64,000 nt of DNA from Synechococcus sp. Its GTDB lineage: Bacteria > Cyanobacteriota > Cyanobacteriia > PCC-6307 > Cyanobiaceae. A program made the position numbers. How positions within the stretch are numbered: the first letter of the stretch is position 1; the number at the start of each line of letters is the position of its first letter. The stretch covers positions 128,001 through 192,000 of the forward strand of contig JBJBEO010000001.1 in the NCBI GenBank assembly GCA_047284725.1, read 5' to 3'. This document shows positions 12,001 through 21,000 of this stretch, in pieces.

Positions 12001-15000
12001 CTGAGGGTTTCCGGTTCCAGCAGGCTGCAGACAATGGACCGAAGCCATCGGTGCAAGGGCGCTGGCCAAGCTGCCAGCAGCATTGTGATCGTGGCCTCTG
12101 CAACGCGCTGGTTGCTTTCGGCACAGGCAAAAAGTTGATGATTGGCGCGCTGATTGAGCTCCATTAAGGCCTGCAGACTGCTGGGCCGTTGTTCAATGTT
12201 CATCAGGCTGCCCACATGATCCCAGAACTGGAATAACGCCTCCTGTTCCAGGGGCTGGAGTGCGCGCCAGCCATACCTCTCGATCCAGCGAATCGGCTCA
12301 GCCACGAAGCCGGAGAGCACGTAGGCGTACTCCGCCTGGCCAATGGCGTAGGTGCCATGAATTCGATTCAGTCGTTGGATGACGGCTTTCCCCTGGGGGG
12401 TATCGGGGCCGAGCCGCACCAGTTCCGCCACGATCAAGGCCGTATCGTCGTAACGCTTCCGGGGGCGTTGCTCGAACTCACCGGTTTGATGCAGCAAGCC
12501 TGAGATCGAGGGCAGGCAGAAGGTCTTCAGCAAGGCCAGTTCCAGGGCCCGGTTCATGTCCCATGGGAAGAGCAATCCCACCAGATCACGACACTGCTCC
12601 AGCACGAGGGGATCCAACCCTTGTGCCCTCTGCGTCTCGGAGCTTGGGTCTGATCCAGAAGACGTCATGGCAGTGATGGTCGCTGAAGGGTGTTGGGTCT
12701 GTCCCAGGTCTGGGCTTTCAAGCTCTCCAAAAGGAAGTCGACCCGTGGATCTCAAATCGATCGCATACAAGCAAAGGTACTTAATTAAATGTCGTTATCT
12801 ATGGATGGCTGGTCTTCTTATTCCATGTGGACCTGAGAGAAGAAAGTCGGTGTTGAGATTCGCGATCTAGATATCTTGATGGCCAGGAAGTCTTTGCATG
12901 CACATTTGTTTATTTTTACTTGGGTTGGTACGCGATGAGCCAATGCCTGCAGATACGACGACTTCATCCGCAGACGCTGTGAAATTGGTTCTCATTCTTG
13001 TTTTTTTGGGGCTCTCAACCCCTGCCCTGAGCATGAATTCATTGCATTGATGCACTGCTCTTGCAGTCAGTTTGTAGCGTTTTGTTGCTAATCTGCGCCA
13101 GAGCGCGGCTTTTTCTACCATTAAAAAAGAAGAATATCCTTTCAATGCCTTTGGGTGATATCGCAGGTAAGTCATCGGCTTTGACGGTGATCACTCCTCT
13201 GTGGTGCTCTTGGATTAACCGCTTTTTGTTTGCTTTATATCGTTCTCTTCCCGCTCAATTCTTCCCACTGGTCAATCTTAAAATGATCCATTTCGCGAGA
13301 TGGGTTATTCTGCCAAAAGATCGGTGGCCAGGGCGTTCTAGGGATTTTAAGACACGCTATTCATACCTTTTATTTGCCTCCAATTTCAATGGTACTTGGG
13401 ATGTTTATCTCGATGAGTTTTCAGATGTGATTTCATTGGGAATGGACACAATGTGGTATCGCAGCATCGGCTATCCAAAGTCCATACCTAGCTCTCCATT
13501 CAAAGCTTATATCGACGACAACTCAATCGAGTGCTCTTACTATTATAATTCTCTTCCTGGATTTTCTCTTAGAGATGTCGCGAGTGCATTAAAAGTGCGT
13601 AAAGCGGTTGGCTGTTTGGAGGCTCATTTGTCTGCGCTTGATCAGGATAACCAGCTATCTGAATCTGCAAAAGATGACTTATTCTTTGAAAAATTTCAGG
13701 CTGTAATGGCTAATTTGGCCAACCATTTCCCATCGACAGGTAAGCCACCTCTGCATTCACACGATATTTCTTGTTAAGGCTTGTCAACTCGCTCAATCTT
13801 TAACGGATAAGATTTATATGCCCAGTAATGAAGCGGGATTCTACCAGTTAACGGCTCTGTTGCCGATCAAAGCGGGCACTTACTCAAGTTTATTGGGCGA
13901 GAATAATGCTTCTAATGCATTTGAAAGCACCCGCTCATATGTTCATCATCTGAAAGCTTACCTGAACAAATTGTCAGATTCATACTTGCAAGAGATTGAT
14001 GATAATCCTTCGGGCCCAAGTATTCCTCATTTATTTGATCATACGAGCCGCACTCATTTTGCAAGATTTGTTGTGATTGATCAGCTTTTCTACAATGGAA
14101 GGCGTCGGAATGATTCCCTTGTGGATTTTGTCAGATTGATGCTAAACAAAGATGTGCTTTCGAGAAAAGACAGGATTGACCAGTTGCACTCTTCTTATCT
14201 TCTTGTAGCTATTGACTTTGACTGCAGTCATGGTTCGACCACTTGCGTGCAAGATTATTTGTCGGAGCTATGGCCTTATGCTCAAGATGAATTGACTGAG
14301 ATCTTTTGGCACTGTGAGGGATTCGCATTGCCATCGCCTTTTAATGATCAATTCTGTCAAACATATGCCAACGATTGGTATCTTTATCAAGTCGTAGAAC
14401 GACTAATCTTGTCTCATGAGGTTGAGACAACTTACCCATTTTCTGCATACTTTTGGGCCGCCGAAAATGTGCGTCGATGGAATCCGTTGACAGATCAAGT
14501 TTCACCTTCTCGATTCCGCAATCGATGGGGATTGATTCTCGTAGGCACTCTACCCTTAATACTTATTTCTCTGGCACTGCTTATTCTACCTTTTTACATG
14601 GGCAGCTTCTTTTTTAATCTGTTGTATCAAGCAGCATTCCCAGATATAGACTTAAGTAATTTCTATTCAGCTTGGAATCAATGGGGGCTCATTGGCTTTT
14701 GCCTTTCCATTGCCTCTTTAATCTTGTTTATGTTTGCTTGGCGATATTTTGTTTCCAGTGCGAATCAATCTCTTGATCCAATAAATGGTGTCGACTTGAA
14801 ATCGATCTTGAAATCTCTTTACATTCAGTCTGAGCTCTTTAATATGTATAAAATATGGCAGGAACATGATCGCTTTGATCGATCCAGTTTACGTAAACGA
14901 TTTGCAAGGTTTCTCGACAAGACGAAACCCTCAGACATACATGCTCCCTCTTTGAAGCCTGGCAAATACTTTTCCACTTTCCCTGAATGATCATGGCTAC

Positions 15001-18000: not shown

Positions 18001-21000
18001 CTGCAGTTGACTACAATCTTTTATGGTTTTCGCATCTTTTCCATTATATCTTTTACGATCTCAATGGTGACGATAGTAGAAGCATTGCGCTTGCATCTGC
18101 AGCTTTGTTTAATCAAGACCTAGATCAACAGATTGCTAGTGCGAAACAACAATTAAGCGAGCCTTTGGAGCATGTCGATACTGTGTTGTCTCGATGTATC
18201 AGACTTCAGCAATCTGGTACTCCTGGAATGGATAATCTTGCGATTCGGATTAATTTGACGGGATTTCTTGTGGGGGCAGTATTGCCGCTGATCAACACGA
18301 TTTGCCAGGTTGTCGATCAGTTGTTGTCTCGACCTCGTATTCTTCAAAAAGCCACACGCGCTGCGGATCAATCCGACCTTGTTTTGTTACAGGGATTTGT
18401 ATCCGAAGCTCTTCGTTTTGCACCGGGTGATCCTGTGATATATCGCCATTGTCGCAAGAAGGTAAAGTTAGTTAATGGGCCATTTCATTCTGCCATACCT
18501 GCCAATACCTTGGTGATGGCATGGAATTCCTCTGCAATGTTCGATCCAAAATATGTTGATAAGCCCTGGCAATTCAATCCCGCTAGACCTGCTAGAGACT
18601 ATTTGCACTTTGGTCATATGCATCATGTCTGTGCAGGTAAATATATTGTGATGTCTGTAATACCAGCGGTGCTTCGTGAATTATTGGTCCGCTATGACTT
18701 GTCTAGGGTCCCAGGTACGTGCGGTTATCCTTCAAAACATGGAATCACGGTTTCAGAATTTGATGTCCTAGTACGTCCTAGGCTCTGTTCTGATGAATGA
18801 AAGACGTCTCTTCATTGTTTAACGATGACTAACTCAGATCACCCGATAAGCGATTTGTCAGTCGATCATCTGCCTATTCGTTCTGATGTGGTCGATCTGC
18901 TCAGGCGTGCTGGCGTAGAGTTCTTTCGATTTCCATTGTCTCCTGAGGGAGATGAAATGGAGGAGTATTTTAAGTCTGATGATTATATTCATTGTCATTT
19001 CACTGAGGAAGCAGTCGCTGAAACTGGATCCGCAATTCATCTACTTGAAGCCTTCCTAAGAGATGTTCATCCAGAAGACCGTGAGTACATGAGAAGTGTG
19101 GCCAAGCAATTATTGGATAGTGATGGTTTTGGTAAAGACATTACAAGTCGTCCATTTCGTGGTGTGTCTCATGATGGACGTTGGTCTTGGTATGAAGTGC
19201 GCATGAATGTTCGCCCTCAAAAGGACCTTTTGATTTGCGAAGGACTGATGCTGAACGTGGATCTACAGCAAGAGTCGTTGATGACTTTGCAGACCAGTCT
19301 TTATCGCGATCAATTGACAGGTCTTGGAAACTTGAAGAGTGCTTATCCCCTGTTAAATGCATTCATTGCTAAAAGCTTGCCTTTTGCGCTTGTCTGGCTC
19401 GATTTGAAGGGCTTTGGGCGGCTCAATACCTATCTCGGTCGCACAACAGGTGATGAGATTCTTCGTGCTACGGCGTTTGCCTTGAAGAGTTGGATCCAAG
19501 ATGGTGATCATTTAATCAGACCTGATTCGGATGAATTTCTTGTCGTATTAAGTGGTCGAGATTCTAAGGCTGCTTACTCTGCTGCTCTTCACCTTTTGGA
19601 TGCCTTACCATCATTATTAGACTCGGGTGGCAACGCTTATTATCGTCTTGGATTTCATGCCGGGATAAGTTCATATCCAGAGCATGGCGAAGACGAGGAT
19701 TCAATTCTGTCGACTGCAGCCTCTGCACTGGATCAGGCCAGACGAATCAATTCTGCCACTGAGTCAGTGGTTGTATTCGGTGATGACATCACATCAAGAA
19801 CGGCTGAATTATTAAACCTTGAAATCAGCCTACGCCAGGCTGTTGAAAAAAATGAATTTAGGCTTCTTTATCAACCACAATGGAATATATCCGGCCAGAT
19901 TATTGGTGCTGAGGCACTATTGCGTTGGAAGAGTGTAAGTCTTGGCCCTGTTGGGCCTGGCATTTTTATACCTCTTTCTGAGCAAACTGGTCAAATTCAT
20001 CAGATTGGAGAGTGGGTTGTTGAAAACGCTTGTCGAGCACTCTCGACCCTGAAAGCGCGTATGAATAATCCTCCAACTCTTTCCATTAACATCTCAGCAA
20101 GTCAACTTTCTTCGCGCCAACATGATGTCTTGACGTGTTTGTTGCGAAATCTGCACCGCTTTCAGGTATCACCTAATCAATTGCATGTTGAGATCACCGA
20201 GTCTGGATTTTTAGATGACTTGGCGATTCGCCGTCTGAAGGGTTTGTACGACGCTGGCATTTGTCTACATATCGATGATTTTGGAACTGGCTTCGCCAGC
20301 CTTTCTAGCCTGTTATCGATTCCCATTCATTCGCTCAAGTTAGATCAGAGCTTTGTCGCTAAGTTGCATTCAACTGAGCCCGACAGTTTGGCAATCGTTT
20401 CTCCTGTCAAGCCATCTATCGCTATTTTGAAGGCTAGTCTTGCTCTTTCAACATCCATTGGTTCTCAAGCAATTGTTGAGGGGGTCGAAACAAAGGAACA
20501 GTTCGCCACTCTCTGTGATATGGGTTATCAAATTTTCCAAGGATACTATTTCTCTAAACCTCTTGAATTTGATGAGTACTGTAGTCTTTTGGATGATCAA
20601 GCATCCAAAGCAGATTTATTTTCATTAGCATCATAGCTTTTGATCGAATTTTCTGAGATGCAGTGAGGATGCCTGCGCTACTTTGCTAATTTTTTGGAGG
20701 CAATGTGTGCTAATTAGTCTGCTTTGCTACAGCTGGCTGAAATTTAGCGCACTTTTTCTTGTGATGATTATTGGCAAAGGCCTACTGGAAAGTATCTCGC
20801 CTGTAATCAAGTCTTTGACAGGTTGGCCTTGCAACAGTTCGGTTGGGATGAAAAGGGCCCCTCCGGCTATTTAGATGTCGCTTGCCACTATGCTTGTTAT
20901 GAGTTCAGTTTCTTTTCGCCTTCCCCCGCCCGTACATTCTCTTGAAATGGATCGTAGTGATCGCCTATTTGAGCAAAGTTGGCCATGATGCAGTCCTTAT

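Follow-up and report, generated by a model that had tools for sequence, protein, structure and literature searches.

A picocyanobacterial, island-borne form of a conserved bacterial cassette pairing a DyP-type peroxidase with a divergent cytochrome P450

In a marine Synechococcus sp., a block of five co-directional genes on a genomic island represents the picocyanobacterial version of a four-gene cassette conserved in bacteria. We analysed the 64,000-nucleotide window that contains it (contig JBJBEO010000001.1, assembly GCA_047284725.1). The first four genes, which encode the accessory proteins P0001 and P0002, a DyP-type haem peroxidase (DyP) and a cytochrome P450, make up a cassette that is conserved and widespread in bacteria, and a GGDEF-EAL gene is its fixed fifth member in picocyanobacteria only. 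The genome-wide survey's note that had drawn attention to the block was confirmed as an observation, and its interpretation was partly supported. What bacterial DyP peroxidases act on in nature is described as still open in the relevant passages of PMC10820274. A conserved, sometimes fused module, found in hundreds of species, links one DyP clade with a P450, two new proteins and membranes, which turns the question of the natural substrates into a concrete experiment. This widespread yet unstudied cassette is a handle on the roles of DyPs in cells, and its picocyanobacterial form adds a read-out in the form of a probable c-di-GMP phosphodiesterase.

Locus and distribution

All five ORFs lie on the plus strand between positions 13145 and 20636, as the survey had placed them. 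The P0001 gene (13145..13777; 210 aa) starts with the ATG at 13145 and is followed by the P0002 gene (13818..14990; 390 aa), the gene for a class V DyP-type haem peroxidase (14987..16903; an ORF of 638 aa, or 636 from the next ATG), the gene for a divergent P450 (16920..18800; 626 aa, or 624 from the next ATG) and a PAS-like-GGDEF-EAL gene (18825..20636; 603 aa). At the closest, neighbouring ORFs overlap by 4 nt (or lie 2 nt apart), and at the widest 40 nt separate them. The low GC content was evident in the GC profile (0.40–0.47 in the block, 0.60–0.72 outside), and the low-GC region reaches further than had been claimed, delimiting a variable island at about 7016..22465 between core genes at 5225–7015 and 22466–23341. 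No tRNA gene was found in positions 1–30000 of the window. The same two core genes (83–88% identical) bracket the block in genomes G018 and G029, where the remaining island content differs; of 37 genomes of the genus, 3 carry the block, at a single island site. Cultured coastal Synechococcus strains whose genomes are complete also have the five-gene form, and the view of the genes as real and island-borne was supported.

The unit is neither a local pairing nor a private operon. A P0001 relative is encoded by at least 560 stretches of species-representative genomes, and the four-gene cassette is mostly alphaproteobacterial. Gene order, counted in the 80 best of these loci (of at least 560), was nearly invariant: P0002 followed P0001 in 74 of 75 evaluable loci and DyP followed P0002 in 70 of 71, while a cassette-type P450 stood directly downstream of DyP in 50 of 67, and a further 5 loci had one at another place. 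With the thresholds applied, 12 of the 67 loci gave no P450 match, so the P450 is dispensable. A functional link between DyP and P450, as the survey had proposed, was supported by the 50/67 adjacency and by 10 DyP-P450 fusions, DyP first, among the 150 best DyP representatives. The same 150 included five with an A1/A2-type domain (the domain of P0001 and P0002, see below) fused to DyP and three with weak Pfam Catalase hits. Any other neighbour recurred in at most 12 of the 80 best loci; genes for an AMP-binding ligase, an enoyl-CoA hydratase and an SDR, all very common families, recurred in only 8–10, and no lipoxygenase, lipase or fatty-acid gene was a conserved neighbour in this set.

The four cassette proteins

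The third gene encodes what is, judged by its motifs, a class V DyP-type peroxidase with intact catalytic residues. Pfam matched DyP_N (E = 1e-11; 45.7 bits against a cut-off of 27.5) and Dyp_perox_C (21.2 bits against 20), and the NCBIfam model TIGR01413 matched at E = 2e-19, under the family cut-off. The best PDB chains were 8re2 and 8re3 (E = 7e-27), and the survey's values for 8re2 and 7anv were reproduced (6.7e-27, and 1.4e-22 over residues 268–631); its label of D-type fits less well than class V, the nearest solved chain being a bacterial DyP. The distal Asp of the GXXDG motif, the distal Arg and the proximal His are all present, and GFFDG (272–276), SHIRR with the proximal His468, and RRILRRG are invariant in the DyP alignment (A4) and align with the corresponding stretches of 8re2. 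Lineage-specific insertions separate the two ferredoxin-like halves, and the protein groups with cyanobacterial rather than proteobacterial copies. No hydrophobic N-terminal segment was found by hydropathy, which argues against export.

Intact catalytic residues would also suit peroxide defence, in which DyP, helped or not by the P450, would scavenge H2O2 or organic or lipid hydroperoxides at the membrane. In that case P0001 and P0002 would serve as tether or reductant supply, and the phosphodiesterase would report oxidative stress. The genome (99.98% complete) contains no match to a KatG-type peroxidase or catalase, so DyP may be its sole haem peroxidase, and H2O2 scavenging is one option named by Yoshida and Sugano in the pertinent part of PMC9719856. 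KatG loss does not track the cassette, however: G000 and G029 lack KatG while G018 has it, and 27 of 43 genus genomes not identified as carriers also lack it (nine of these lay outside the cassette search). Simple scavenging also leaves unexplained the conserved four-protein module, the P450 fusions and the two dedicated accessory proteins, and we consider peroxide defence fairly unlikely.

The P450 had been described as unusual, and both the family profile and the I-helix motif counts supported this. The Pfam p450 model covered residues 396–607 only (E = 1e-12; 48.1 bits against a cut-off of 22.8), and a single-sequence PDB search returned its best chain at E = 3.3e-7 over 493–599, reproducing the survey's match confined to the C-terminal part (E = 3e-7); a family profile (alignment A3) covered the whole fold (E = 1.6e-24, positions 85–452). 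The EXXR motif (EALR) and the Cys-ligand loop (FGHMHHVCAG) that the survey had reported were both found. The first 230 or so residues form an N-terminal extension with two to three hydrophobic segments by hydropathy. The I-helix looks non-canonical: in this Synechococcus it reads GAVLPL, without the acid-alcohol pair (Asp/Glu-Thr), and among the 58 family sequences in which the motif was found, mapped by HMMER alignment to EryK and to the canonical motif, the acid position is hydrophobic in 56 and the Thr position is Pro in 49.

In the PDB, the P450 family matched best to class I bacterial enzymes of antibiotic pathways (EryK, PikC and OxyD-like chains). EryK, the mapping reference, itself has Ile at the acid position, and some true monooxygenases deviate at the I-helix. 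The survey had called the P450 partner-less, but the host genome has three other P450 genes, and cyanobacterial ferredoxins could serve any of the genome's P450s. The class I matches would fit a tailoring or catabolic module, in which an ordinary ferredoxin-dependent P450 monooxygenase and a DyP oxidase act on a secondary metabolite, an aromatic compound or a xenobiotic; DyPs oxidise dyes and phenolics in vitro. Against this, the acid-alcohol pair is missing across the P450 family, the membrane anchors suggest a membrane-bound substrate, and the 80 best loci of at least 560 show no conserved biosynthetic core gene or catabolic operon next to the cassette. We judge a tailoring or catabolic role to be very unlikely.

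P0001 belongs to an unannotated family of alpha+beta domains (alignment A1; 182 homologues) with invariant motifs that include HFARWV, SNFNGTWD and YYYN, and it had no match in Pfam, in NCBIfam or, by sequence, in the PDB. P0002 consists of an N-domain (about 1–230), a two-helix membrane hairpin (236–313) and a helical C-terminal tail (AF2 model pLDDT 66). Its transmembrane segments, which the survey had put at the C-terminus, are present by hydropathy at 236–270 and 288–313; they are not strictly C-terminal, because about 75 more residues come after them. Both proteins are without any family in Pfam and NCBIfam, and the HFARW and HFARF motifs occur in their sequences, as had been noted. The likeness goes beyond a shared motif: hhalign of A1 against the P0002 alignment A2 gave a probability of 68% (E = 4.6e-5 over 91 columns), the HMMs cross-hit too, and by these profile comparisons P0001 and the P0002 N-domain are paralogues. 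A natural P0001-P0002 fusion (P0036) was found; the two are also the most constant partners of DyP in the counts above, and are fused to it in relatives. Having no Pfam, NCBIfam or solved relative, this family merits definition.

Structure prediction suggested that P0001 binds the P0002 N-domain as a heterodimer (ipSAE 0.71 against 0.39 for the best of three controls; of 157 solved complexes 116 attained that mark, as did 2 of 215 mismatched pairs). Contacts agreed by at least 78% between runs, partner pLDDT was at least 71, and in the predicted interface the HFAR strands pair reciprocally with YYYN and ETT strands. PDB sequence searches with A1 and A2 found no solved complex resembling it. 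The His-x-x-Arg that is invariant in both paralogues, together with fold hints towards dimeric alpha+beta barrels, could instead indicate haem or tetrapyrrole handling by an IsdG/ChdC-type haem-binding or haem-degrading barrel pair, with DyP acting like the deferrochelatase or porphyrinogen oxidase roles given to DyP relatives in the relevant passages of PMC3215433. Neither the A1 nor the A2 profile is similar to DyP or matches a PDB sequence, though, and among the conserved neighbours in the 80 best loci of at least 560 there was no gene for haem uptake or haem biosynthesis, which makes this explanation highly improbable.

The phosphodiesterase gene and a proposed mechanism

The fifth protein is probably a c-di-GMP phosphodiesterase. 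Pfam identified EAL (8e-55), GGDEF (9e-21) and a weak PAS_3, and the N-terminal part gave a weak PAS match to 3eeh (E = 0.0095). The GGDEF site is degenerate, reading DSDEF (SDEF) rather than the GG(D/E)EF of diguanylate cyclases, and lies opposite the GGDEF of the island's other GGDEF-EAL protein in a pairwise alignment. The EAL domain appears intact, with EAL, DDFGTG and downstream EGVE and QG motifs.

This gene starts 24 nt past the P450 stop on the same strand. All six complete loci of the picocyanobacterial lineage (L002–L005, G018 and G029) have it immediately after the P450, an arrangement kept in L002–L005 although their copies are just 45–51% identical to this one. The other cyanobacterial clade (L019, L028) has no copy of it, and among 73 non-cyanobacterial loci 4 have a GGDEF or EAL gene within 10 kb, about chance level. 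The GGDEF-EAL link is confined to one picocyanobacterial lineage, and it is from adjacency in that lineage that we infer a feed into c-di-GMP signalling. This distribution, in a host genome rich in such genes (22 GGDEF and 10 EAL matches), would fit a co-inherited neighbour with no functional tie to the cassette. That reading falls on the unlikely side, given the close same-strand adjacency preserved between such diverged copies and the unrelated CHASE-PAS-GGDEF-EAL gene directly upstream of the cassette in Roseibium (L053).

We tentatively favour, at somewhat less than an even chance, a membrane-tethered, peroxide-linked oxidation of a hydrophobic substrate by two haem enzymes, which in picocyanobacteria would be linked to c-di-GMP breakdown. 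In this scheme, P0001 and the P0002 N-domain would form the predicted pseudo-symmetric alpha+beta heterodimer, which the P0002 hairpin would anchor at the cytoplasmic face of the membrane; membrane association is supported by hydropathy, with two segments in P0002 and two to three in the P450 N-terminus. The heterodimer's putative partners are DyP, which is constant, and a membrane-associated P450 without the O2-activating acid-alcohol pair. With peroxide, DyP would oxidise a hydrophobic substrate drawn from the membrane, an unsaturated lipid being the likeliest candidate, or activate it as a radical and oxygenate it. The resulting peroxide or oxygenated intermediate would be converted by the P450 with no redox partner of its own, by analogy with fungal dioxygenase-P450 two-haem enzymes but with a different peroxidase fold. 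The picocyanobacterial PAS-like-EAL protein may then link this chemistry to c-di-GMP breakdown through product or redox sensing, or through co-expression. A Ppo-like reaction was suggested independently for P450-DyP fusions by Yoshida and Sugano in 2022 (PMC9719856, in its passages on these fusions). Counting against the mechanism, the 80 best loci have no lipoxygenase, lipase or fatty-acid gene as a conserved neighbour, the P450 is dispensable, some true monooxygenases also deviate at the I-helix, and the c-di-GMP link comes from adjacency in one lineage of a genus whose member here has many GGDEF and EAL genes. The nearest solved DyP, DrDyP, is moreover reported in the relevant part of PMC10820274 to be inactive at neutral pH.

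A more specific version, which we regard as quite unlikely, is that the cassette is a bacterial oxylipin-type lipid-mediator synthase, with DyP as the dioxygenase, the P450 rearranging the hydroperoxide, the heterodimer delivering or shaping the membrane substrate, and the lipid product serving as ligand of the PAS-like phosphodiesterase. If true, this would provide a route from lipid peroxides to c-di-GMP signalling in picocyanobacteria.

Comparison with known systems

Fungal psi-factor-producing oxygenases (Ppo) and linoleate diol synthases likewise combine a peroxidase-type haem enzyme with a P450, as do the P450-fused relatives of the DyP. The fungal Ppo P450 is thought to act on the hydroperoxide of the first enzyme without a redox partner. 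This two-haem pairing, with the hydroperoxide passed to the P450, is cited in the part of PMC9719856 that deals with such fusions. The first fungal enzyme has a cyclooxygenase-like animal haem peroxidase fold, whereas the cassette has a DyP fold, separate genes and two extra conserved proteins. Identity with them was ruled out, as the partner is a DyP and the animal haem peroxidase domain had no Pfam match.

The P450-transmembrane-DyP fusion proteins of DyP subclass V4, as presented in section 3.2 of Yoshida and Sugano (PMC9719856), share with the cassette a class V DyP, a P450 and membrane segments, but are single polypeptides with the P450 first, whereas in the cassette two genes encode these enzymes and that for DyP comes first. 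That section mentions neither the two accessory proteins nor a gene cassette. Membership of V4 was ruled out, as the P450 is neither fused nor N-terminal to DyP and the fused relatives are DyP-first. DrDyP of Deinococcus radiodurans (8RE2/8RE3), likewise a bacterial class V enzyme and the best solved match (E = 7e-27), has Met in the GXXDG motif, according to the relevant part of PMC10820274, where this Synechococcus DyP reads GFFDG. At 442 aa, it is also without the insertion of about 95 residues between the two halves of the Synechococcus protein.

In CYP152 peroxygenases and CYP74 allene oxide synthases, peroxides or hydroperoxides replace O2 and electrons, and the I-helix acid-alcohol pair is absent, CYP152 having Arg-Pro at that site. 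The cassette P450s are without this pair as well, most having Pro there, but show no detectable specific sequence kinship with either family, their best matches being ordinary class I bacterial P450s. For the fifth protein, the DosP-type PAS-GGDEF-EAL model reached only 255 bits against an equivalog cut-off of 857, and the sensor is only weakly PAS-like, yet DosP was the best NCBIfam match (1.5e-75 over the GGDEF-EAL part) and has the same layout of a degenerate GGDEF and an intact EAL domain.

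The conserved cassette and its c-di-GMP neighbour

The real unit within the block at 13145-20636 is a widespread cassette of four genes, encoding a 210-aa protein (P0001; 13145-13777), a 390-aa protein (P0002; 13818-14990), a DyP peroxidase (14987-16903) and a P450 (16920-18800), which in the window are followed by a gene for a GGDEF-EAL protein (18825-20636). The genome-wide survey's note had placed these five ORFs correctly, every one on the + strand, and the spacing between them ranges from a 4-nt overlap to 40 nt. Pfam and NCBIfam identify the third to fifth genes as DyP, P450 and GGDEF-EAL protein and match neither of the first two, as that note had said for Pfam, and the PDB scores it cited took the same values on re-run. 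Contigs of 151-239 nt, 99-100% identical, cover parts of 16321-20157, and two of them span the DyP/P450 junction; these were not counted as evidence of expression, the two cDNA-labelled runs being flagged 'probably DNA'.

Scanning by pattern, with each species represented by one genome, gave at least 601 stretches matching the P0001 family; tblastn confirmed at least 560 of them, and the 80 best loci were retained. These come mainly from Alphaproteobacteria, with a few Burkholderia, two gammaproteobacterial MAGs, one MAG labelled Mycobacteriaceae and seven cyanobacterial contigs. Counting only those of the best 80 (of at least 560) with DNA enough to judge gene order, the P0002 family directly followed the P0001 family on the same strand at 74 of 75 loci, a DyP followed the P0002 family at 70 of 71, and a P450 of the same subfamily followed the DyP at 50 of 67, lying elsewhere in the locus in five more. 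The P0001 and P0002 families are thus the most constant partners of the DyP. No further neighbour family recurred in more than 12 of the 80 best loci, and those that did recur were very common families in varied positions (ABC ATPase, enoyl-CoA hydratase, SDR, AMP-binding ligase, TctC). At three loci from Erythrobacter and Roseiarcus (L054:13299-14612, L055:13301-17862 and L063:13403-16614) the downstream P450 is more distant and lies on the other strand. Beyond it comes a gene for a nucleotide cyclase-AAA_16 protein in L055, which is another type of second-messenger gene next to the cassette, and one for a TPR protein in L063.

The window's GGDEF-EAL protein has DSDEF at the expected GGDEF position, retains its EAL, DDFGTG and EGVE motifs, and is weakly PAS-like over its N-terminal 150 residues. 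Every one of the six complete loci in this lineage (L002-L005 and the genus genomes G018 and G029) has an orthologue immediately downstream of the P450, whereas the other cyanobacterial clade (L019, L028) lacks it. Outside the cyanobacteria, four of 73 loci have a gene with a GGDEF or EAL domain within 10 kb, directly upstream in one (Roseibium), which is about the chance level in such genomes, and the host genome itself has 22 GGDEF and 10 EAL matches above cut-off. The link between the c-di-GMP gene and the cassette is therefore real in the sense of co-inheritance within one lineage, but a functional tie is unproven. No Rfam match was found over 6500-25000 at E up to 1, and thus no known c-di-GMP riboswitch.

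Haem enzymes and paired accessory proteins

The window DyP keeps the GFFDG motif, the proximal His and the distal stretch rich in Arg, none of which varies among 20 cassette DyPs. Its best solved matches are DrDyP of Deinococcus (8re2/8re3, identified via PMC10820274), an ancestral D-type enzyme and the C-type DyP2. The family assignment in the survey's note therefore holds, with the type better given as class V than as strictly D-type. Its extra length lies chiefly in lineage-specific insertions between the two halves. Cysteines 463, 543 and 571 (residue numbers of the window's DyP) are also invariant in 20 of 20 aligned cassette DyPs, and one invariant cysteine sits five residues ahead of the proximal His. 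Among the 150 best DyP representatives, ten are fused to a P450 of this same subfamily, five carry a P0001/P0002-type domain ahead of or behind the DyP, and three carry catalase-like parts; the last score weakly in Pfam (19-27 bits), have no PDB match and serve as a hint only. Two DyP relatives (P0335, P0336) bear an N-terminal DUF998 membrane domain, another membrane tie of this DyP clade.

The P450 subfamily retains the EXXR motif and the Cys loop. Its I-helix reads G-A-(V/I)-P-T in most members, whereas the window's P450 has GAVLPL. The motif was found in 58 sequences; mapping via an alignment with EryK puts a hydrophobic residue at the acid position in 56 of these and Pro at the conserved Thr position in 49. 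Most members begin with one hydrophobic or amphipathic helix, and the window's clade has about 230 additional N-terminal residues with two to three hydrophobic segments. That this P450 is partner-less, as had been claimed, cannot be concluded, because the genome carries three more P450 genes.

P0001 and P0002 are taken as paralogues, because a comparison of their profiles sets HFARW opposite HFARF and YYYN opposite ETT (91 columns, probability 68%, E 4.6e-5) and because HMMs of the two families match the same stretches of fused relatives. One 566-aa protein is a natural P0001-P0002 fusion. P0002 has in addition a two-helix hydrophobic hairpin at residues 236-313. A complex predictor run on P0001 with P0002 residues 1-232 gave a score of 0.71, whereas the highest of three controls was 0.39; of 157 solved complexes 116 attain the mark used with this predictor, as do 2 of 215 mismatched pairs. 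With contact agreement of at least 78%, partner pLDDT of at least 71 and reciprocal pairing of the conserved strands, P0001 is predicted to bind this part of P0002 as a heterodimer. The fold is probably, on weak grounds, a ferredoxin-like alpha+beta sandwich pairing into a barrel; the P0001 model was of too poor a quality to serve as a search query. Sequence searches returned no solved complex like this one, PDB profile searches for the two families gave nothing below E 2, a Pfam scan of every aligned member at E up to 10 gave scattered noise alone, and Protein Atlas returned unnamed clusters only. The possibility that the two proteins are remote DyP domains was ruled out at sequence level by hhalign against the DyP alignment (probability below 1%).

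A strain-variable island at a fixed site

The five genes have a GC content of 0.40-0.47, with flanks at 0.60-0.72, in a genome that is a single 2.58-Mb contig. The low-GC setting reported by the survey's note is real, and larger in extent than it had described, at about 7016-22465. On the + strand of this island lie a second GGDEF-EAL gene (7349-9043; GGDEF intact, EAL motif EVL), whose product is 29% identical to the cassette-linked one, and ankyrin-repeat and MscS-like channel genes (9353-10324 and 10792-11658); none of the three was found in the G018 or G029 islands. Immediately upstream of the cassette, on the - strand and with a host-like GC of 0.60, is a gene with an MpaB/Lcp (rubber oxygenase-type) catalytic domain (11745-12770), a further putative oxygenase acting on hydrophobic substrates; no homologue was seen next to the cassette in G018 or G029. 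At the island's edge, convergent to the five-gene block on the - strand, are genes for a 199-aa protein of no family (20897-21496) and an SdiA-regulated/phytase-like beta-propeller (21513-22337). A patatin-like phospholipase gene (23498-24547, - strand) lies in a separate low-GC patch (GC 0.49-0.56), 2.9 kb from the block and past a core PEP-mutase-like gene.

G018 and G029 have the same five genes, likewise at GC 0.41-0.46, bracketed by orthologues of the same pair of core genes. Their flanking genes are 83-88% identical to those of the window, the five genes only 63-86%, and the remaining island content differs; the island thus varies between strains while its site is fixed. No tRNA genes were found in 1-30000 of the window, promoter and terminator scans (20 and 11 sites vs 15.9 and 8.9 in shuffles) were uninformative, and the upstream regions of four close copies had no clear common motif.

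P0002 occurs in three of 37 genus genomes, the window's among them, and in none of the 24 other families of the class searched; P0001 occurs in five of 201 genomes sampled from the family (3 of 64 genera). P0002 homologues bear names from Synechococcus sp. CC9311 and KORDI-52. The cassette copy closest to the window's is on L001, a contig filed as 'uncultured proteobacterium'; since it opens with a fragment of the same Synechococcus flanking gene (L001:26-472), it probably represents a fourth instance of this island arrangement, on picocyanobacterial DNA that was probably mis-binned. A DyP tree of 71 rows (quick search, midpoint root for drawing only), which omits nine of the 80 loci that lacked a DyP ORF of 500 aa or longer and adds the window, G018 and G029, splits ten cyanobacterial rows from 61 proteobacterial and other rows on a branch of 96% SH-aLRT, and joins the window, G018, G029 and L001 (100%), next to L002-L004 (100%). 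On this grouping, the block was not acquired recently from a high-GC alphaproteobacterium; it moves among picocyanobacteria.

Proposed function and relation to published systems

Gene order, conservation, paralogy, fusions, motifs and hydrophobic segments are established here; we infer the substrate class, reaction order, topology and signalling. We tentatively read the block as a peroxide-linked system of two haem enzymes that is tethered to a membrane and acts on a hydrophobic substrate. In this scheme the DyP would carry out the first oxidation and the P450, as second enzyme, would use peroxide or hydroperoxide, while the P0001/P0002 pair, as a predicted heterodimer, would supply tether and substrate-handling subunits and the phosphodiesterase may provide a lineage-specific signalling output. 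The main rival is plain peroxide defence, which gains from the window's genome having no match to a KatG-type peroxidase or catalase, but KatG does not track the cassette within the genus, and no pattern of KatG-cassette complementarity appeared across its genomes.

Full-text literature searches turned up no paper on the four-gene cassette, on its accessory proteins or on bacterial DyP in connection with oxylipins, and a term search of the CC9311 transcriptome paper (PMC3744912) gave no relevant passage. The DyP-P450 combination appears in print solely as fusions in the reverse order noted from sequence, in the passages of PMC9719856 that concern them, where the same Ppo-like speculation is made. 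New here are the picocyanobacterial five-gene form with its phosphodiesterase, the long P450 membrane extension, the DyP insertions, the island setting and the predicted P0001-P0002 heterodimer.
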